Of a DNA stretch of 21,956 nt, positions 9,004-21,676 are shown piece by piece. Source of the DNA: Elusimicrobiota bacterium (GTDB lineage Bacteria; Elusimicrobiota; Elusimicrobia; UBA1565). The stretch covers positions 1-21,956 of the forward strand of contig JBDRPD010000073.1 of the NCBI GenBank assembly GCA_043827405.1. The letters are read 5' to 3'. How positions within the stretch are numbered: the stretch's first letter is position 1; every line of letters begins with the position of its first letter. Below the pieces are notes generated by a model, which was not told the origin of the DNA, ran no database searches, and saw only the letters and a program-made list of their open reading frames with translations. The translations under genes were made by a program, and so were the position numbers.

Positions 9004-10650
9004 CTAATTAATCCGTTCCGGCACCGAATCCAGGGCGCTGAAGAGGTCCATCCCTTTCTGGTAGCGGTGCGGCGGCTCGGGCTCCAGGGCCTTGTGGATG
9101 ACCGGGTCGACCTCCACCGGGATGTCGTCCGAGAAGCCGCTTGCGGGAGGATAGCGCCGCTCGCGCTTCTGCGCGGTATGGTTCGGCCCGGCGAAAGGCG
9201 GCCGGCCGGTCAGCATCGCGTAGCAGAGCGCTCCCAGCGAATACAGGTCGGACTGTTTGAATTCCGTGCCCAGTTCCTGCTCGGGCGCGAGGTAGGCCGG
9301 GTCGCCGATGGCGCGCGAGAGCGACAGCTGCGCCGCCCGGCGCCGCGCTTCCAGCCCCAGCCCCAGATCCAGCATCTTGACGGTGCCGTCCTCCTGGACG
9401 ATGACGTTGGACGGGCTGATGTCGCCGTGGATGAGCCGCTTCTCATGCGCCGCGTCGAGGAGGATGGCGATTTGGCTGACGATCAGCTTGACCGAGCGGA
9501 GCTCGGTGAAGTTGCCGGGCGCGATGAACTTGGTCAGGGGCACGCCGCCCACATGTTCGGCGGCGATATAGATGCGGCTGTCGACGCGGAAGACGGAGCG
9601 GACGACGGCCAGGTTGCGATGCTTGAACTCGGCGAGCGTCCGCAGGCGCGCGAAGAAGCGCTCGAGTTCGTTGCGCGTTCGGTGGAAATCCTCAACGACG
9701 CTTTTCAGCACGACTTTGCAGCCGTCCGTCCGGTCGGTCGCCGCATAAACCGGTCCCAGCGTGCCGCTGCGCAGCAGCGCTTCGACCTGGAAGCGCTCGT
9801 CCAGGAGCGTTCCCACGACGTCCGCCTCCCTAGGCGGCGCCTTCGCCGGCGGCGGTGCCGCGCCCGCCGGCGGCGGTGCCGCGCCCGCGGCGGCGGCGGG
9901 CACCGGCAGCTTCGTTTTTTTCCGCCGGGAGAGGAGGTACAGGACGGCCAGCAGCAGCCCGAGGGCGGCGGTGCCGGCCGCCACGTACCGCTTGTGTTTT
10001 TGCGCGCGCGCCCGCGACCGGATGACCGCGGCGCGGGCTTCATCGTCCAGCCGCAGTTCGTTTTGTATCCGCTTCCCGAAGTCCAGCGCGCCGTCCTTGT
10101 CGAAGTCGCCGAGGTCCAGCAGCGTCTCGTAGTTCTTGACCGGGGCTTCGCCCTCGCCCGTTACCAGCTTGCTGAACATGATGACGCCCTGCTGGAACTG
10201 GTAGTCCTTGCGGATGTGATGGAACTCTTCAGCGTTGGCCTTGATGCGCTCGCGGCCTTCCCTTAGCGTCCGGCGCAGAGGTTCGCGCTCGGCGGCCAGC
10301 GTCTCCAGGTCGGGAGTGGCGGCGTATTTGCCCTTGAGCGCTATCAGGCGCTCAAGAACCGGCGGCAGCTCCCGCATGTCCTTGGCGACTTCCCGCTTGA
10401 TCTCGGCGATGCGCTGCGCGTACATGTCCTGTTCGTTTTCGGGGGAGTACTCGCCGATCTTCCCCTGGAGTTCGCCGACGCGCTTTTTCACCTCGGGGGC
10501 GCGAGCGGCGATGTTTTTCCGGATTTCGCCGACGCGCTTCAGTACGACGGCCGCATCTTTTTCCGAGCGCTTCTGGTCCTGCGCTCCGGCGGGCGCCGCC
10601 AGCAGGAGCGCCGCGAGGGCGAGCAGGACTGCACGAGAGGGGGGCGTCAT
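9004..10650 (-). CDS. Membrane-anchored Hanks-type Ser/Thr protein kinase(-like) with an extracytoplasmic coiled-coil domain
   Basis: Signal peptide (…APAGA|Q), helical ectodomain, TM segment, Pro/Ala linker and kinase motifs VVLK, IHGDISPSNV, DLG, YLAPEQ, SDLYSLG, LTGRPPF. Start at 10650 is supported by TATACT 7 nt upstream. Confidence 0.88.
   Translation of the reverse strand: MTPPSRAVLLALAALLLAAPAGAQDQKRSEKDAAVVLKRVGEIRKNIAARAPEVKKRVGELQGKIGEYSPENEQDMYAQRIAEIKREVAKDMRELPPVLERLIALKGKYAATPDLETLAAEREPLRRTLREGRERIKANAEEFHHIRKDYQFQQGVIMFSKLVTGEGEAPVKNYETLLDLGDFDKDGALDFGKRIQNELRLDDEARAAVIRSRARAQKHKRYVAAGTAALGLLLAVLYLLSRRKKTKLPVPAAAAGAAPPPAGAAPPPAKAPPREADVVGTLLDERFQVEALLRSGTLGPVYAATDRTDGCKVVLKSVVEDFHRTRNELERFFARLRTLAEFKHRNLAVVRSVFRVDSRIYIAAEHVGGVPLTKFIAPGNFTELRSVKLIVSQIAILLDAAHEKRLIHGDISPSNVIVQEDGTVKMLDLGLGLEARRRAAQLSLSRAIGDPAYLAPEQELGTEFKQSDLYSLGALCYAMLTGRPPFAGPNHTAQKRERRYPPASGFSDDIPVEVDPVIHKALEPEPPHRYQKGMDLFSALDSVPERIN
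9844..9888. repeat. 21-bp tandem duplication encoding the kinase linker (GAAPPPA)x2
   Basis: cgccggcggcggtgccgcgcc occurs twice in tandem at 9844-9885. Confidence 0.8.
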
Positions 10651-10714
10651 CCCGTCAAGTATAGCGCGGCTTGAGCGTTTCATCCAGAGACGCGGAGCGG
10701 GTAAAATAAGGATA

Positions 10715-14265: not shown

Positions 14266-15474
14266 GTGTCGTCTGTCTACCAGCTGCTGAAATCGCATCC
14301 CAACCCCGGCCGCCGCAAGATCGGCATCGAGGTCGAGCGTCTGCTTATCGACCGCCGCCCCCTGCGCTACGAGCCCGACGTCCGGGTCCTGCTGGAGACC
14401 TTGGTCGCGCGCCATCACTGGCGCCCGACCTATGAGTCCGCGGGGAAAATACTGGCGGTTGAGAAGGACGGGCATGCGGTGACGATCGAGCCGGGCGGGC
14501 AGTTCGAGGTTTCCTCGGGCCCCCGGGAGACCATCGCGGTTCTGAAGATCATCAAAGAAGAGATCGATGAGGATATCGCGGCGGCCATGTCCGGCCGCAG
14601 CGCCGGCTTCCTCTGCGTCGGGCTCAACCCCTGGGACCGGGCCGAGGATATCCCGCTGCTGCCCAGTCCGCGCTACCGGCTGATGGACGCGCACTTCCAG
14701 CGCCTCGGCGGCCGCGGCCGGGAGATGATGCGCCTGTCGCTGGGCCTGCAGGTCAATCTCGACATCGACGGCGAGAAGCTGGCCGTCGAGATGCTGCGCT
14801 CCGCCTTCTACGCCGCGCCGGTGCTGAGCTCCTGGTTCGCCAACTCGCCCTGCCTGCGGGGCGCCAGGACGCCGCATCTCTCGGAGCGGCATTTTGTCTG
14901 GCGCGAAACCGATGCCGCGCGCTCGGGCTTTCCGCCCTGCGTCTTTGCAGAGGGCTTCAACCTCAAGAGCTACGGCGCGTATGTCGGCCGCACGCCGCTG
15001 ATGTACGCTTTTGACGCCGCCGGCGAGGTCTGGGATCCCCAGGGCCGCTGCCTCGACGACCTCGATCCGGAAATGCGCGAGATCAATACCCTGCCGGCGG
15101 TGAAGCAGATTTTTACCGAGGCGCGGCTCAAGCCCTGCTGCGTCGAGGCGCGCTTTTTCGACCAGCTTGACGACGATTTGCGCTACGCCGCCGTCGCGTT
15201 GACCGTGGGCCTGCTCTACGATGAAGAGAACCGGAGGTGGCTCAATAAAAAGTATGCCGGAGCGAAAGCGCCGGCGCTGGCGGCGCTGATGAAAAAAGGC
15301 GCCGAGTCCGGCCTCAAGAACGCGGAGATTTACGCCGCCGGCAAAGAGTTTTTCGCCGCGGCGGAGAAGGGGCTGCTGCGGCGCGGCCTGCGCGAAGAGG
15401 CGTTCCTGGCGCCGGCCGAAGAGCTGCTGCGCGTCCGCCGGACGCCGGCCGAGGATTTTCGCGTCGAGCTATGA
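14266..15474 (+). CDS. gshA: Glutamate--cysteine ligase (GCS2 family, plant/alphaproteobacterial type)
   Basis: IGIEVE, TIEPGGQFEVS, PRYRLM, GREMMR...QVNLD, FANSP, R..VW..TD..RSG, FTEARLK..VEARFFD; adjacent to gshB. Confidence 0.88.
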   Translation: MSSVYQLLKSHPNPGRRKIGIEVERLLIDRRPLRYEPDVRVLLETLVARHHWRPTYESAGKILAVEKDGHAVTIEPGGQFEVSSGPRETIAVLKIIKEEIDEDIAAAMSGRSAGFLCVGLNPWDRAEDIPLLPSPRYRLMDAHFQRLGGRGREMMRLSLGLQVNLDIDGEKLAVEMLRSAFYAAPVLSSWFANSPCLRGARTPHLSERHFVWRETDAARSGFPPCVFAEGFNLKSYGAYVGRTPLMYAFDAAGEVWDPQGRCLDDLDPEMREINTLPAVKQIFTEARLKPCCVEARFFDQLDDDLRYAAVALTVGLLYDEENRRWLNKKYAGAKAPALAALMKKGAESGLKNAEIYAAGKEFFAAAEKGLLRRGLREEAFLAPAEELLRVRRTPAEDFRVEL

Positions 15475-16427
15475 AGGTCCTGTTCATCGCCGACCGGCCC
15501 GCGGACCTCAATCCCCGAGCCGATACGACGCTCTACATGCTGCGCGAGGTCCTGCGCCGGGACATGGCGGCGTATTACGCCGTTCCCGAACGCGTCTACT
15601 GGTCGGGGACCGAGCTCCTGGCCGACGCCGAGGCCGTCGAGTCCTGCGCCAAGCATGCGCTGCCCGTTCTGGGCCGGAGGGAGCGGCTGTCCTTCGCCGG
15701 CGGGATCGACGCGGTCTTTATCCGCAAGGACCCGCCCTTCGACCTCGACTATATATCGCTGTGCTGGCTGCTGACGGCCTATGAGGAAAAGGTGCGGATG
15801 ATCAACCGCCCCAGCCTGCTGCTGCGCTATCATGAGAAGATGCCTCCCTACGCGGCGGCGGCGGCGGGGAAGCTGCGCGCGGACGACGTCGTGCCGGCCT
15901 GTCTGGCTTCGCGGCTGGAGCAGATCACGGCGTTCGTGGAGGCGTTGGACGCGCCGCGCATCATTCTCAAGCCCTGGCTCGGCTACGGCGGCCGCGGCAT
16001 TCGCCGCGTCGCGCGCGATGAGTTTCTTAAAGCGCCGGGCTCCTTCGGCTTGGGCAAGGAACGCTGGATGGTTCAGCCCTACCTTGAAGCGGTGGAGCGG
16101 ACCGGCGACCGCCGCGGCTTCTTCTTTAACGGCCGCTACTGCGGCAGCATCGTGCGCATGCCCAAGCCGGGCGGCTTCGTCTCCAATCTGGCGCAAGGCG
16201 GCACGGCGGTCAAGCAGGAGCTCTCCGCCAAGGAGCGGGCCTTGGTCGCGCGCATCGAGAGCTGGCTTAAGGGATCGGGCATCGTTTTCGCGGGCTCGGA
16301 CTTCATCGACGGGCGGCTCAGCGAGCTCAATATCACCTCGCCCACGGGCTTCGCCTCGTATGAAGAGCTTTACGGCGGCGATCCGTCCGCGGCGCTCATC
16401 GACGCGGCCTTCGCGGAGCGGCGGTGA
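15471..16427 (+). CDS. gshB: Glutathione synthetase (prokaryotic ATP-grasp)
   Basis: FIAD...DTT, RKDPPFD.DY, INRP..L...HEK, KP..GYGGRGI, MVQPYL...GDRR, SNLAQGG, ELNITSPTG; ATGA overlap with gshA. Confidence 0.92.
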   Translation: MKVLFIADRPADLNPRADTTLYMLREVLRRDMAAYYAVPERVYWSGTELLADAEAVESCAKHALPVLGRRERLSFAGGIDAVFIRKDPPFDLDYISLCWLLTAYEEKVRMINRPSLLLRYHEKMPPYAAAAAGKLRADDVVPACLASRLEQITAFVEALDAPRIILKPWLGYGGRGIRRVARDEFLKAPGSFGLGKERWMVQPYLEAVERTGDRRGFFFNGRYCGSIVRMPKPGGFVSNLAQGGTAVKQELSAKERALVARIESWLKGSGIVFAGSDFIDGRLSELNITSPTGFASYEELYGGDPSAALIDAAFAERR

Positions 16428-17356
16428 ATACGGCGCTCAAGATCGATGAGCTGACGGTCCGCTATGCGGTCGATGCGGGCGAGACGGTCGCGGTTGATCG
16501 CCTTAATCTCGAGGTGCGTGAAGGCGAGCTCTTCGCGCTGCTGGGCCCCAACGGGGCGGGGAAGACCTCGGTCATCTCGGCGATTACCGGCATCATCACT
16601 CATCAGACCGGCCGCATTCAGATATTCGGCCATGCGGCGGCGACGCCGACGACCAAGCGCCTGGTGGGGCTGGTGCCGCAGGAATTGGTGGGCTACGGAT
16701 TTTTCAACGTCAACGAAGTGCTGCAGTTTACCTCGGGCTATTTCGGCCTGCGCGACAATCAGCGCCGGATCGACGAGCTGCTCGACCGCCTGCAGCTGAC
16801 GTCCGAGCGCGGCAAGCTGATCTCCCAGCTCAGCGGCGGCATGAAGCGCCGCATGCTGATCGCCCGGGCCCTGGTGCACTCGCCCAGGATCCTGCTGCTG
16901 GACGAGCCCTCGGCCGGGGTGGACGTGGAGCTGCGCGCCATTCTGCTGGATTTTATCACCGAGCTCAATAAAGGCGGGACGACCATCATCCTGACCACGC
17001 ACTACCTGGAAGAGGCCCAGCGCCTGTGCAAGCGCGCGGCGATTATGAACGAGGGGAAGCTGCTGGCGCTCGATGAGACCGGGGCGATGATCGCCGAGAT
17101 GTCGGAGCGGATTTTAACGGTGACTTTGCGCTCGGCGCTGCCGGGGCCGGCCCCCCAGGCGCACCCGGACCAGGGGCTGCTGGAAGTTTCCCGCGAAGAC
17201 CGGGTAGTGCGGGCGACGGTAACGGGGACCACCGGCCTGCAGACGGCGCTGCGCCTGCTCGATATCCCGTTATCGAATATTCAGGACTTGCAGACCGAGG
17301 AGGGGGACTTGGAACATGCCTTCCTCCGCCTGCTCAAGAAGGAGCGGGCGAGATGA
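16424..17356 (+). CDS. ABC-2 type transporter ATP-binding protein (YadG-like)
   Basis: Walker A GPNGAGKT, VPQE, signature LSGGMKRR, Walker B LLLDEP, TTHYLEEA; GTGA overlap with gshB. Confidence 0.93.
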   Translation: MNTALKIDELTVRYAVDAGETVAVDRLNLEVREGELFALLGPNGAGKTSVISAITGIITHQTGRIQIFGHAAATPTTKRLVGLVPQELVGYGFFNVNEVLQFTSGYFGLRDNQRRIDELLDRLQLTSERGKLISQLSGGMKRRMLIARALVHSPRILLLDEPSAGVDVELRAILLDFITELNKGGTTIILTTHYLEEAQRLCKRAAIMNEGKLLALDETGAMIAEMSERILTVTLRSALPGPAPQAHPDQGLLEVSREDRVVRATVTGTTGLQTALRLLDIPLSNIQDLQTEEGDLEHAFLRLLKKERAR

Positions 17357-18144
17357 TCTACTGGGAGAATCCGGTGGGCTTTCGCTCCTTGGTGCGCAAG
17401 GAGATCATGCGCCTGATGAAGGTTTTTACCCAGACCATAGTCAGCCCGCTGATCAGCGCCGGGCTCTATATGCTGGTTTTCGGGGTGAGCCTGTCGAGCC
17501 TGCTGCGCAACCAGCAGGGCTTTACCTATTTGGAATTTCTGGTGCCGGGACTGATCGCGCTGTCGTCGCTCAATAATGCGCTGCAGAACGCCGCCAGCTC
17601 GATCATGATCAGCAAGTTTCACGGCGATCTGCAGGACCTGCGGCTGATCCCCTTGTCGCCCGGCTCCATTTCGATCGCCTACGTGCTGGCCTGCGTGTTC
17701 CGGGGGGGGATCGTCGGGTTTCTGGTTTTGGCCTTGGGACAGGCGGTCTTCTTTCTGCAGACGGGAAACTGGATCGGGGTGGCGCATCCGTTGGGGCTGG
17801 TTGTCTTTTTGGTTCTGGGCTGCTCCATCTTCGGCAATCTGGGCATCTGCTCGGGCTTCCTGGCCAAGAGCTTCGACCATATCAACGCCTTCGCCAATTT
17901 CGTGATCCTGCCGCTGATCTATCTGGGCGGGGTGTTTTTCTCGCTGGATATCCTGCATCCGTTGTTCCGTTCGGTCGCGCACTTTAATCCTCTCGTTTAC
18001 CTGATCAACGGCATCCGCTGGAGCGTGCTCGGGGCCGGGGATATCCCGGTGCGGACCTGCCTGGCGTCGGCGCTGGCATTTACCGCGGTGAGCTTCGGGG
18101 CGGCATGGGTGAGCGTGGCGAAGGGCTCGTATCAGCGGTTTTAG
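17353..18144 (+). CDS. ABC-2 type transporter permease (YadH-like)
   Basis: KEIMR...QTIVSPLI, YLEFLVPGL, PLIYLGGVFFS, NPLVYLINGIRW; about 6 TM; ATGA overlap with the ATPase gene. Confidence 0.92.
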   Translation: MIYWENPVGFRSLVRKEIMRLMKVFTQTIVSPLISAGLYMLVFGVSLSSLLRNQQGFTYLEFLVPGLIALSSLNNALQNAASSIMISKFHGDLQDLRLIPLSPGSISIAYVLACVFRGGIVGFLVLALGQAVFFLQTGNWIGVAHPLGLVVFLVLGCSIFGNLGICSGFLAKSFDHINAFANFVILPLIYLGGVFFSLDILHPLFRSVAHFNPLVYLINGIRWSVLGAGDIPVRTCLASALAFTAVSFGAAWVSVAKGSYQRF

Positions 18145-18167
18145 AGAACCGGCGGCGCTCCGGAGTC

Positions 18168-18197
18168 TTGACGGTCCGGCCCCCGCGGTAATACACT
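18168..18197 (+). promoter_or_regulatory. Putative sigma70 promoter TTGACG-N18-TACACT for the 443-aa gene
   Basis: TTGACG at 18168-18173 and TACACT at 18192-18197, 13 nt before ATG 18211. Confidence 0.55.
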
Positions 18198-18210
18198 ACC
18201 GGCAGCCCTC

Positions 18211-19542
18211 ATGACCCCGCAGGAGTACTACGCCCAGGTCTACGCGAAGCTCGAGGAGAGCTTCCGGCAGTTCCATTACGTGGTGGCGGCCGGCCGCGAC
18301 CTGCTGGCCGACGGCTGGGACCCCGGCTTTCTGGTCGCGGTTGAGCCCGTGGACCAGCTGGGAAAATTCACGCGCGAAAAGGGGATGCAGGTGCACCTGC
18401 CGGTGGTCGGCGAAAGGAGCTGTTCCGTGCTCATGCCCATGGACTTCGAGATTTTCCTCCTGGGGGAAAACCATGCGCTCTACACGGACCAGGAGTCGCA
18501 GCGGCACTGGTTCAAGCAGATGGCGGGAGTTTTCCGCTTCGTGGAACGTTTTTTTAGAAGGCGGGGGGTCCCCTATTTGCTGGACTACACCCCTTCCGGC
18601 GCCCACCTTCTGTGGCATAACCCGATTGGGGAAAGCACCGCCGACGCTCTGGAAAGCATCGGCTGCCTGGAGCCGGATCTTATCGCGGCCTGCCGCTACG
18701 TCGACGAAGCCGACATCAAGCGGCGCTGGGGAGTAACGCTTGAAGCGGCCCGGGTGTTCAGCGGGCTCACCAAGCTGGCGGAGTACCTGTCGCTGATAAC
18801 GATCGAGGCTTTCAAGGACAACGAGGCGCGCGGGGAGCTTCCGGTCACTATCTCCGACAGCGTCGACCGCTGCATCAACTTCGACAACTCCTGGTGCGAG
18901 GGCTCGCCGTTTATGCGGTCGATCCGCAGTCCTTTCAGCCTGCATAAGAAGAACCACGACAAGTACCATATGTTTCATCATCCGCCCCTGGTCGACGTGG
19001 TCGGCGCCCGCTTCAACGGCCTCGAGGCCGTTGAGGAGCCCGACATGGACCGCATCGTCGACTGCATGTGGGACTTGGACCGGGCCGCCGAGCACGCCCG
19101 GGGTTTTTCCGGGATCATCCCCGCTGCCAACGACGGGACGGCCGCGCTGGTGGGCGAATATATGCGCAGCGAGCTGTTCTGCTTTCATGAGGAGTTCGAC
19201 AAGACGGACGATAAGCCGCGCGGGCAGGCGCTCGCCGAGGCACAGCGGGACGGCCGCCTCACCGACTTCGCGCGGCAGTTCCTGGCGTGCCCCAACCCCA
19301 TGGCCCTCCAGCCCAAGAACATGCTGGGCTTCGTCTATGATCTCCTCGTCTACGCCGGCTGGAAGCCCAAGCACATCGCGAACGTGCTGCGCGACTTATA
19401 CATCGATCCCCGCCACGGCTGGACCATCGACTTCTTCAAATATCCGGCCGAGGAGAAGGCGAACTTCTGGGTCCGGACTTTCAGCTCGCTGGCGCTGTGG
19501 CGGACGGGAAAGCTCCGCGTTCCGGCGGAGCCCGCCGAATAG
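18211..19542 (+). CDS. Hypothetical protein, predicted archaeo-eukaryotic primase (AEP/PrimPol) superfamily catalytic domain + helical C-terminal domain
   Basis: In order: LMPMDFE (D78/E80), YTPSGAHLLW (H132), INFD (D225), RSIRSPFSLH (236-245). The ORF is confident; the family assignment rests on motifs only. Confidence 0.6.
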   Translation: MTPQEYYAQVYAKLEESFRQFHYVVAAGRDLLADGWDPGFLVAVEPVDQLGKFTREKGMQVHLPVVGERSCSVLMPMDFEIFLLGENHALYTDQESQRHWFKQMAGVFRFVERFFRRRGVPYLLDYTPSGAHLLWHNPIGESTADALESIGCLEPDLIAACRYVDEADIKRRWGVTLEAARVFSGLTKLAEYLSLITIEAFKDNEARGELPVTISDSVDRCINFDNSWCEGSPFMRSIRSPFSLHKKNHDKYHMFHHPPLVDVVGARFNGLEAVEEPDMDRIVDCMWDLDRAAEHARGFSGIIPAANDGTAALVGEYMRSELFCFHEEFDKTDDKPRGQALAEAQRDGRLTDFARQFLACPNPMALQPKNMLGFVYDLLVYAGWKPKHIANVLRDLYIDPRHGWTIDFFKYPAEEKANFWVRTFSSLALWRTGKLRVPAEPAE

Positions 19543-19622
19543 CGCCGCCGCCGCGGATTTTTCCGGGAACCTTTCTCCCGCTTGCGCGTAGTCCTATACG
19601 AATCCGCCGGACGGAGGAGTGC

Positions 19623-20330
19623 ATGACGCCGACTCTATTGTCGCTATTGTTTGTTTTGTCCGTGCCGCCCGGCGCGGAGGCTCGGGCGCAAGGCCGCGAA
19701 ATCGACAGCATGCTGGTCGAAGGCAGCGACCGGGCCGCCCTGTTCGGCCGCCCGAACGCCGCGCCCGCCGTCAAGCTTCCGCCGAGCTACGGCCAGGTGA
19801 TCGCGATCGGGAAATCGGGGCGCCTGACGGTGCGCCGCAAGGACGGGAAGAGCGAAACCCTGAAGCTGTCGCGAGCGACCCGGCTGACGCAGGGCGGCGA
19901 GTTTGCGGCGGTCAAGCAGGCGGCGCTGCAGAAAGGGCAGTGGATTAATTACGCGCATAAAAACGGCAGCGCCCTGCACGTGCATATCAATGCAGCGCCG
20001 GAGAAAGCGAAAGACAAGCCGTCCGCGCCTGTCGAGGCAGTAGAACCGGCCGAGGATTCCGCCGAGGAGTCAGCGGCGGAGCCGGCCGAGGAACCCGCGG
20101 AAGAACCGGCGGTAGAGCCCGCGGAAGAACCGGCCGAGGAACCGGCGGCGGAGCCCGCCGAGGAACCGGCGGTAGAGCCGGCCGAGGAGCCCGCGGTAGA
20201 ACCGGCCGAGGAGCCGGCGGCGGAGCCCGCTGAGGAGCCGGCGGCTGAGCCCGCCGAGGAGCCAACGGCGGAGCCCGCCGAGGAGCCCGCCGAAGAGCCG
20301 GCGGAAGAGACGAGCTCGGACTGGGAATAG
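19623..20330 (+). CDS. Secreted protein with a small beta (OB/DUF5666-like) domain and an acidic PAEE-repeat tail
   Basis: GGAGGAG SD before ATG 19623; signal peptide; beta-rich domain (YGQVIAI...LTVRRKDG...LQKGQWI...LHVHI); repeat tail. Confidence 0.75.
   Translation: MTPTLLSLLFVLSVPPGAEARAQGREIDSMLVEGSDRAALFGRPNAAPAVKLPPSYGQVIAIGKSGRLTVRRKDGKSETLKLSRATRLTQGGEFAAVKQAALQKGQWINYAHKNGSALHVHINAAPEKAKDKPSAPVEAVEPAEDSAEESAAEPAEEPAEEPAVEPAEEPAEEPAAEPAEEPAVEPAEEPAVEPAEEPAAEPAEEPAAEPAEEPTAEPAEEPAEEPAEETSSDWE
20043..20310 (+). repeat. Coding 12-bp tandem repeat, ~20 units of E-P-A-[E/A/V]
   Basis: Units such as gagcccgccgag, gaaccggcggta and gagccggcggcg. Confidence 0.9.
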
Positions 20331-20352
20331 AGTTCCCTATTCTTCCGGCTGA

Positions 20353-20365
20353 AGGAATCTGCTTG
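20353..20365. repeat. 13-bp direct repeat, copy 1 (AGGAATCTGCTTG)
   Basis: Identical to 21753-21765. Confidence 0.75.
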
Positions 20366-20440
20366 CGGGAAACGGCGGTGGCGGTGAGACCAAGTAATAT
20401 GGGGATTATCAATATGTCTTGGGCTTCCCGGTCGTCGGAC

Positions 20441-21676
20441 TTAGATCTCGCGTCCCAGCCAATGGAAATAATCCTCCATCGAGAGGACCTCGGCGTCCTC
20501 GGCGAGGGAGACGGTTTTATCGCTTAGAGACAGGATACGCCCCTTCCCGATGTCGAGGCGCGCGAAGAGTTTCCTGAACCGCCCGATGCCGGCGGCCATG
20601 GAAAGCCGGGGGGTCTTGGACAGCTTGATCTCCAGCGGATAGAGTTTCCTGTTTCCGGCTTCTATCAGCAGGTCCACTTCAATGCCGTTGTGGGTGCGCA
20701 GATAGAATAACTCGGGACTCTTTCCCTCGTTGAGGAAGATCTTAAGCGTCTCCTGTATCCAGAAATTTTCGAACAAGGCCCCCGCCATCGGTCCGCTGAA
20801 CAAATGCTCCCTGCTGCGCACTCCGGTCAAATAGCAGACAAGGCCGCAATCCACAAAGTAGACCTTGGGCGCTTTCGTCACTCTTTTCCCGAGATTATTG
20901 TAGTAAGGAGGCAGCAAATACACGATCCTGCTCGCTTCCAGGATCGATATCCAGCGCTTGATCGTGTTGGCCCCGACTCCCAGGTCTTTGGAGAGCGACG
21001 CCGTGTTGAGCACCTGGGAGCAGCGGGCCGCCAGCAGCTTGACGAATAACTGGAAATCCCTCAAGTTGCCGATATTATGCAGGGTCCGTACGTCTCGCTC
21101 CAGGTAAGTCCGAAGATAGGCGCCGTACCACGCTTGGACGTCGATGTTTCCGTCAACGCTCGTCTCCGGGAACGAGCCCCGCAGGCACGCATGGGTAAAG
21201 CATCCGCCCGTGTCGGTCAGCGCCGATCGGATGCGTTTGACTTTTCTCTTCTCCCCGACGCCGAACGGCATCAGCTCGAGCAGGGCGATCCGGCCCGCCA
21301 GGGAATCTCCCAGGTCCTTGATCAAGGCGAACTGTTGGGACCCGGTCAAGAGGAAGCGCCCCTTCTCGCTTCGCCGGCTGTCGATCGCCATCTTCAGATA
21401 GGAGAGCAGATGCGGAGCGTACTGTATCTCGTCCAATATGATTCTTTCGCCCGCTTCTTCAAGCAGAAGCCTGGGATCGGAAAGAGCCTTTTCTCGGACC
21501 AGAGGGTCGTCGAAAGTGACGTACGTATGGGTCTTGGAAAAAACCTTCCGCAGGAGCGTGGATTTTCCACTCTGTCGGGGGCCGGTCAGGGCTACGGCCG
21601 GGAATTGCTTCGCCAAGCCGGAAAGGGTCTTCTCAATGCTTCTCGGGATGTAAACCGGCCGCTTCTTGGGCGCCAT
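20441..21676 (-). CDS. AAA_14 + DUF4143 ATP-binding protein (COG1373-like)
   Basis: YIPR, Walker A GPRQSGKST, ILDEIQ, LLTGSQ, SLAGR, RGSFPE, TYLERDVR, KAPKVYFVDCGL, GALFEN, YLRTHNGIEVDLL, PLEIK. Confidence 0.92.
   Translation of the reverse strand: MAPKKRPVYIPRSIEKTLSGLAKQFPAVALTGPRQSGKSTLLRKVFSKTHTYVTFDDPLVREKALSDPRLLLEEAGERIILDEIQYAPHLLSYLKMAIDSRRSEKGRFLLTGSQQFALIKDLGDSLAGRIALLELMPFGVGEKRKVKRIRSALTDTGGCFTHACLRGSFPETSVDGNIDVQAWYGAYLRTYLERDVRTLHNIGNLRDFQLFVKLLAARCSQVLNTASLSKDLGVGANTIKRWISILEASRIVYLLPPYYNNLGKRVTKAPKVYFVDCGLVCYLTGVRSREHLFSGPMAGALFENFWIQETLKIFLNEGKSPELFYLRTHNGIEVDLLIEAGNRKLYPLEIKLSKTPRLSMAAGIGRFRKLFARLDIGKGRILSLSDKTVSLAEDAEVLSMEDYFHWLGREI

Follow-up and report, generated by a model that had tools for sequence, protein, structure and literature searches.

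The window (the whole 21,956-nucleotide stretch of DNA that was analysed) harbors a gene for a 443-residue single-chain protein, designated P0001, in which an AEP catalytic domain is followed by a helical C-terminal domain (CTD) (Table 1). The residue numbers given in the original prediction (D78, E80, H132, D225 and R236) and its C-terminal stretch WKPKH/W404/ANFWVR agree with the translation. The gene starts with ATG, and the homologues share the same initiator methionine. Scoring of 8,000 candidates gave 198 homologues at E <= 0.001; the top 120 of these 198 are 54-80% identical to P0001 over nearly the full length, and the family comprises 214 representatives at the 50% level. A loose regular expression for the motif order matched one of the 6,847 stop-to-stop frames of at least 200 aa in the host genome, namely the P0001 gene. 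Among seven homologues compared, dS was saturated in three; against the four that were left, the closest ones, dN/dS is 0.13-0.20, and the codon-position GC content resembles that of neighbouring and host genes. On sequence grounds, the interval is a real gene and is under purifying selection.

Table 1. Features of the P0001 gene and its upstream region (window coordinates)
Feature	Position	Strand	Basis
Sigma70-like promoter candidate, TTGACG-18-TACACT	18168..18197	+	Consensus match only; 13 nt before the ATG
Gene for P0001, 443-aa AEP + PriX/PriL-CTD-like single-chain protein	18211..19542	+	ORF, homologues, models
AEP catalytic domain, residues 1-~305	18211..19125	+	Structural alignment to MtPolDom / Prim-PolC
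Motif I, D78-F-E80, on strand E72-83	18442..18450	+	Alignment, model
Motif II region, T127-PSG-A-H132, leading into strand E130-138	18589..18606	+	Alignment, model
Motif III, D225, end of strand E220-225	18883..18885	+	Invariant in 120/120
Basic motif, R236-x-x-R239-x-P-x-S-x-H-x-K247	18916..18951	+	Conservation; role proposed
C-terminal all-helical domain, residues ~320-438, PriL-CTD/PriX/photolyase-like	19168..19524	+	Models, alignments

The gene had been predicted to possess its own promoter. The element TTGACG-18-TACACT is indeed present and matches 9 of 12 consensus positions, but one promoter-type site was found versus 0.3 +/- 0.6 in shuffles of positions 17900-20500, so it is not clearly above chance. 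Nor was a terminator-like site found between the upstream ABC permease gene, which ends at 18144, and the P0001 gene; a separate promoter is therefore no more than plausible. The P0001 gene has no obvious Shine-Dalgarno sequence. Inspection by eye of 45 upstream regions of family genes revealed no common operator, with a TTGAC-type hexamer also present upstream at two of these loci (L050 and L054), and no Rfam family matched in the window.

Further upstream, positions 14266-18144 carry genes for a GCS2 glutamate-cysteine ligase and a glutathione synthetase overlapping an ABC-2 transporter pair, which form a glutathione operon. A link between these genes and the AEP gene was rejected, since in the relative G784 they lie on different contigs and close P0001 homologues have other neighbours. 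Downstream, the ORF at 19623-20330 combines a signal-peptide-like start with a long acidic tail of Pro-Ala-Glu-Glu repeats (24-bp period, 10.4 copies, 20061-20309); sequences resembling its N-terminal part occur on two other contigs of the host. The window also encodes a FIST-domain adenylate/guanylate cyclase (394-2193) and a membrane Ser/Thr kinase whose N-terminal part is a long coiled region (9004-10683). No Ku, ligase, helicase, Cas or mobile-element gene was seen among the window ORFs, 13 of which were scanned.

Database searches bear out the earlier description of the gene as unannotated. P0001 matches no Pfam family at E <= 1, yields only one weak and irrelevant NCBIfam row, and has no match in PADLOC, PHROGs or PDB sequences; profile searches of PDB sequences with three family alignments (A2, A3 and A4) returned insignificant rows only. 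The named relatives belong to Elusimicrobiota, Desulfobacterota and Victivallales, and all names among the matches listed are 'hypothetical protein'. No published description of the family was found in titles and abstract openings. In the supplements of PMC5862659, Elusimicrobia and Victivallales are absent among the matches listed, and the few Verrucomicrobia and Desulfobacterales rows listed there represent other families. The sequences represent an unnamed chromosomal bacterial AEP family; a clade scheme of AEPs is outlined in PMC4538821.

The host genome, which is 98% complete, contains one family copy together with DnaG and an Nfo match above cut-off. Searches of it for LigD-Pol, Ku, ATP ligase, Cas1 and PriS gave no match. 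The Nfo match occupies the distal half of a 562-aa frame (G000:C81:33381-35066, minus strand), which may be a fusion or just a long frame. The P0001 family was present in 5 of 17 genomes from the host's taxonomic family, in 22 of 301 from its phylum, in 7 of 301 genomes of the phylum of G303, and in 51 of 201 genomes of the order of G428. Such a patchy distribution, together with the predominance of mobile elements among published bacterial AEPs (PMC5862659), could suggest a mobile-element remnant or an inactive protein. This is highly improbable given the intact active site (see below), the low dN/dS, the host-like codon GC and the mostly ordinary cellular neighbours of the family genes; moreover, searches reaching close relatives only found none in viral contigs (three queries), plasmids (two) or phages (one). 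The original view of a stand-alone chromosomal gene holds.

Catalytic domain and its relation to repair polymerases

The AEP motifs as defined in PMC10345425 (motif I, hhhDhD/E; motif II, sxH; motif III, hD/E) occur in this order and are conserved in the P0001 family. In alignment A2 (n = 120; P0001, 33 close homologues and 86 near-full-length representatives, fragments excluded), D78 is kept in 117 sequences, an acidic residue (D/E) at position 80 in 117, H132 in 112 and D225 in all 120. G130 is likewise invariant (120), and R236, R239 and K247 of the basic motif, which by analogy with other AEPs would be nucleotide-binding, are kept in 113, 109 and 112 sequences, respectively. Of the 120 tree sequences, 108 have the whole catalytic set (D, D/E, H, D), and all 25 members of the window clade keep each of these four residues.

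The AlphaFold model of P0001 (mean pLDDT 97.2, pTM 0.95) was compared with 48,161 representative chains. The best fold match is Prim-PolC (6sa0; Z 16.8, rmsd 3.9, 255 aligned residues), followed by LigD-Pol (Z 15.5, 15.5 [2fao/2iru] and 15.3), PriS/Pri1 (Z 12.4) and the CAPP core (Z 11.5; 11.5-12.8 with a second comparison included). The 13 chains at Z >= 8 comprise AEP structures plus Helicobacter pylori HP0184 (Z 8.0), whose structure title does not name an AEP. A Foldseek search with the whole model gave no match at E <= 0.001, its top-ranked rows being LigD-Pol. The fold match and the positions of the four catalytic residues on the motif strands suggest that these residues are spatially clustered. 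The original prediction of a divergent AEP, for which a homologue alignment and a fold comparison had been proposed as checks, is thus supported by both, Foldseek on its own not being significant. By its motifs and predicted fold, P0001 is a member of the AEP/Prim-Pol superfamily, and it is very probably an active nucleotidyltransferase of this type.

The nearest cores are those of Prim-PolC (PolD1 of Mycolicibacterium smegmatis) and LigD-Pol (6sa0, 5op0, 2fao, 2iru and 5dmu), which have AEP motifs I-III in common with P0001 and are likewise chromosomal bacterial AEPs. However, P0001 is only 12-17% identical to them, the LigD-Pol/Prim-PolC family PF21686 has no match in P0001 or in the host genome, and both polymerases lack the PriL-CTD-like domain of P0001. 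In addition, residues 1-305 of the model align to MtPolDom residues 27-291, and residue 1 aligns to residue 36 of Prim-PolC. The 5'-phosphate pocket of Prim-PolC consists of N20, K23, Y25 and K35 (PMC7442782). The alignment therefore begins past these residues, indicating that the pocket segment present in Prim-PolC and LigD-Pol is absent from P0001; 18 of the 25 window-clade members have at most five residues before Y6. A ligase or Ku operon partner of the LigD-Pol type was found neither at the P0001 locus nor in the host genome, nor among the scanned neighbours.

The proximity of the core to LigD-Pol and Prim-PolC, in a host with neither Ku nor LigD, would be compatible with an end-joining or RNA-repair polymerase that works without these partners, by terminal transfer or microhomology bridging, and some Verrucomicrobiota copies lie near genes for topoisomerase IB, PfpI and a PolX-like HhH protein. 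Nevertheless, such a role is improbable, considering that no ligase or Ku gene occurs among the recurring clusters or the 79 scanned neighbours, that the host has no ATP-dependent ligase, and that the 5'-phosphate pocket segment is missing.

C-terminal domain and absence of the cysteines

The CTD of P0001 lacks the Fe-S cysteines and the cysteine tail found in sister clades. Distant family members (alignment A3, n = 71), whose homology to the window clade extends across 408 columns (hhalign E 2.8e-60), contain LPPC and, about 85 residues further on, C-x8-C-x4-C, with cysteine in 51, 50, 50 and 40 of the 71 sequences at the four positions. Of 120 sequences, dereplicated from 266 at 64% identity, all 64 with the tail also have the first cysteine; 53 lack both, and in 3 the first cysteine is present but the tail pattern is not matched. 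The median spacing in the sister clades is 85/9/5, compared with 75/12/8 in the Nanoarchaeum fusion primase NEQ395 (PMC10250227) and 81 between the first two cysteines of yeast PriL (PMC2852410); by sequence, the sister-clade cysteines are spaced like PriL 4Fe-4S ligands.

A model of a four-cysteine sister-clade CTD (pLDDT 94.8) has the PriL Fe-S domain as its top match (Z 6.5, rmsd 3.9, 112 aligned residues), and 17 of the best 18 rows are PriL-CTD (including human PRIM2C), photolyase/cryptochrome, the pRN1 HBD or PriX. Within the whole P0001 model, the PriL Fe-S domain is matched at Z 4.8. PriL-CTD, photolyase/cryptochrome and their kin are structurally related according to PMC2852410. In the ESM Atlas, the CTD leads to clusters in which 17% of members carry PF04104 (0.91) and 90% PriX (0.90), whereas whole P0001 leads to a PriX cluster (47% of members) and to Nanobdellota PriS clusters, some with PriL (0.94). 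PF04104 itself matches 2 of 65 CTDs, with a best E of 0.0027 that does not reach the cut-off. Because the Z-scores are under 8 and Foldseek with the CTD gave nothing significant (E <= 0.001; pRN1 HBD among the top rows), membership in the PriL-CTD/PriX/photolyase superfamily is likely rather than proven. The earlier guess of a PriL/PriCT-like C-terminal module has thus gained support and can be stated more sharply, in that the domain is homologous to the four-cysteine PriL-CTD-like domain of the sister clades and lacks the cysteines, as PriX does.

The window clade comprises 25 representatives (support 0.987; FastTree, tail columns excluded, midpoint root) and corresponds to a subfamily from Elusimicrobiota, Desulfobacterota and Victivallales. 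The four-cysteine motif occurs in none of these 25, compared with 64 of 120 family representatives; P0001 has F353 at the first-cysteine column and ends before the tail. Cysteine-free groups also occur in several other places of the midpoint-rooted tree, suggesting that the four cysteines were probably lost more than once. As PriX still primes (PMC5700102) and so do cysteine mutants of NEQ395 (PMC10250227), loss of the cluster does not exclude priming.

Members of one Elusimicrobiota family (f17; L129, L130, L131, L132, L133, L134, L170 and L171) carry tandem paralogues, one with the four cysteines and one without; these pairs directly follow thiM-thiE-like genes and have no nuclease partner. 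Convergent pairs of cysteine-free paralogues adjoin an ATP-grasp gene at L162 and L163 (genomes G390 and G444), and genome G303 has three dispersed family copies.

An AEP core followed by a PriL-CTD-type domain is also the arrangement of Nanoarchaeum equitans NEQ395 and of archaeal PriS with PriL or PriX, and the cysteine-free version in P0001 parallels archaeal PriX, which is cluster-free (PMC5700102). Unlike the archaeal primases, the P0001 family is bacterial, patchy and non-essential-looking, and its hosts possess DnaG; no match to the archaeal primase families PF01896, PF04104 or PF18689 was found above cut-off. P0001 has none of the four cysteines of the NEQ395 type and, because these are missing, is not a canonical PriS-PriL fusion. 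The initiation arginines of PriL, NEQ395 and PriX also appear not to be kept when positions are assigned by sequence offset. In yeast PriL, the initiation arginine R355 lies 19 residues after the first cysteine, C336 (PMC2852410). By sequence offset, the equivalent column contains Q in 48 of the 64 cysteine-bearing members; in P0001 it is L372, where 41 of 44 close homologues have I, M or L, and the preceding basic position is Q367 (41 of 44). Counted from the first cysteine, the positions of yeast R355, NEQ395 R301/R303 and PriX R72/R74 thus fall on Q367/L372 of P0001 by sequence offset only. Elsewhere in the CTD, R394, K416 and R422 are each present in 44 of 44 close homologues, and W404 in 112 of 120 sequences.

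A helical C-terminal domain from the PriL/PriCT superfamily behind an AEP core is further shared with CAPP, PolpTN2, pRN1 ORF904 and RepB' (PMC8211822; PMC5862659). However, P0001 lacks the TPR, helicase or RT fusions of CAPP and mobile-element AEPs. CAPP is associated with cas1/cas2, whereas no Cas1 was found in the host and no cas gene among the scanned neighbours, and the mobile-element AEPs (PrimPol-PV1 supergroup, RepB' and pRN1) differ in that close relatives of P0001 were not found in plasmids, phages or viral contigs. By the features compared, P0001 is not a LigD-Pol/Prim-PolC, CAPP or mobile-element primase.

Gene neighbourhood and proposed function

The neighbourhood sample comprised 153 distinct gene copies; the 133 with sufficient flanking sequence were clustered at 85% identity. 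Of 41 informative main-clade groups, 29 have an AP_endonuc_2 barrel no more than 500 bp away, as against none of 41 window-clade groups and none of 11 groups in a second cysteine-free clade; 7 groups were too short to score. Among eight longer or outlying members of the family that were tested, one, P0195, is an AEP-barrel fusion. Among the 301 Elusimicrobiota genomes, the barrel subfamily (E <= 1e-40) was found in 13, namely in 11 of 22 AEP-positive versus 2 of 279 AEP-negative genomes, counts in which related genomes are not independent; it was not found in the host genome. Nine His/Asp/Glu positions of the barrel are invariant in 18 of 18 sequences, and we take them to correspond to the ligands of the three-metal site of endonuclease IV. 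Assignment of the barrel as Nfo was rejected: it falls below all Nfo cut-offs, and CbiR, sugar epimerases and MJ1311 score as well or better. In NCBIfam, the phosphodiesterase CbiR gives the top match; among solved structures the nearest relative is the uncharacterised MJ1311, and a search of the literature on the relatives MJ1311 and TTHB071 found nothing relevant. The substrate of the barrel may therefore not be DNA.

Window-clade genes have shifting, mostly ordinary cellular neighbours (30 loci mapped, 79 neighbours scanned). This neighbourhood survey, which had been suggested together with the original prediction, found no recurring repair neighbour, ligase, Ku, cas or helicase partner beside the window clade; one of the 30 loci has IS-like genes upstream and one a downstream helicase gene. 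Judged from the sequences, the window clade is a subfamily without the cysteines and without the nuclease partner in which the active site has been kept.

Some neighbours recur within single lineages. A cNMP-binding Crp-type gene lies directly upstream of Elusimicrobiota four-cysteine AEP genes (L120:2495-3178, L122, L124, L128 and L168), whereas other Elusimicrobiota four-cysteine AEP genes are preceded by phosphomannomutase and NTP-transferase genes. Window-clade loci with nearby glycogen-type genes (L065, L066, L076, L085, L114, L116, L042, L082, L100 and L105) feature glycogen phosphorylase, debranching/branching enzyme, CBM48 and glucokinase, a recurrence judged by count only. Functional links to thiamine, Crp or glycogen genes were rejected as lineage-restricted. 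Verrucomicrobiota AEP-barrel pairs (L157, L196, L200, L189, L158 and L156) lie near topoisomerase IB, PfpI/DJ-1, PolX-like HhH, HSP20 or Usp genes, which suggests that they are located in stress or stationary-phase islands (for L196 and L200, judged from sequence starts only).

A synthase encoded beside a phosphodiesterase is a common layout. P0001 might accordingly belong to enzymes that make an oligo- or cyclic nucleotide without a template, or nucleotidylate a non-DNA acceptor, with the trimetal barrel serving phosphodiesterase turnover. The CbiR match of the barrel, the Crp gene directly upstream in several Elusimicrobiota and the glycogen-metabolism genes recurring near Desulfobacterota-type copies are consistent with such a product synthase. 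We consider it unlikely, however, as the retained PriL-CTD/photolyase-like domain is a nucleic-acid-binding module (PMC2852410), the Crp and glycogen neighbours are lineage-restricted, PADLOC gave no match, and the window clade persists without the hydrolase.

The reading to which we give about an even chance is that P0001 acts as a single-chain PriS+PriX-like repair polymerase in short-patch gap filling. In its build, the protein would resemble PriS to which the C-terminal domain of PriL has been fused, the window form being PriX-like. As in established AEP chemistry, the enzyme would extend a 3'-OH on a DNA template with (d)NMPs, using two metal ions on its acidic triad. The helical CTD may bind the template where it is single-stranded, or else the nascent or downstream strand at its 5' end, and may stand in for the N-terminal phosphate pocket used by LigD-Pol and Prim-PolC. 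Repair synthesis would then take place at nicks or gaps left by an AP endonuclease or 3'-phosphoesterase; in the sister clades the nick-maker could be the co-encoded endonuclease-IV-like barrel, and in the host its own Nfo acting in trans. By analogy, this role is favoured by the barrel adjacency in the main clade, the P0195 fusion and the precedent of Prim-PolC, which fills gaps after EndoIV in excision repair (PMC5663958). As the window clade has no repair neighbour, the role is carried over from a sister clade of about 25% identity, and this link, which runs through a putative nuclease partner, is its main weakness. A further point against it is that initiation, not gap filling, is the usual task of a PriL-like domain.

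Initiation is the basis of another scenario, in which P0001 is a true single-chain primase for repriming or replication restart that makes short primers on ssDNA downstream of lesions, with the CTD binding the initiating nucleotide as in PriX and the enzyme serving as a back-up to DnaG. The combination of a PriS-like core with a PriL-CTD/PriX-like domain recalls the monomeric primase of Nanoarchaeum, priming does not require the cluster in that enzyme or in PriSLX (PMC10250227; PMC5700102), P0001 lacks the phosphate pocket that directs LigD-Pol and Prim-PolC to gaps, and its CTD keeps the basic and aromatic residues R394, K416, R422 and W404. However, Q367 and L372 occupy the offset positions of the PriL initiation arginines, the core is nearer to repair polymerases than to PriS, and no recurring helicase partner was found among the neighbours, so we regard repriming as doubtful. 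Framed in evolutionary terms, and equally tentative, the family may constitute an unrecognised chromosomal bacterial lineage of PriS+PriL-CTD primases, with a 4Fe-4S, nuclease-coupled form and a repeatedly derived cluster-free, partner-free form (P0001, in which PriX would have been re-invented) that primes past lesions beside DnaG.

In PMC5862659, bacterial AEPs either belong to Ku/ligase repair systems or reside almost only on mobile elements, and PriL is tied there to archaeal and eukaryotic chromosomal replication. The P0001 family, being chromosomal, ligase-free and fused to a PriL-CTD-like domain, fits neither pattern. What the Fe-S cluster of primases does is described as unresolved in PMC10250227. 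With variants that naturally have or lack the four cysteines, among them the tandem pairs of one Elusimicrobiota family, its role could be tested directly in a small enzyme made of a single chain. Should P0001 be active, it would represent a cofactor-free Prim-Pol that is expected to be easy to express. A further family member, P0235, carries N-terminal CBS domains and may represent a ligand-regulated form.
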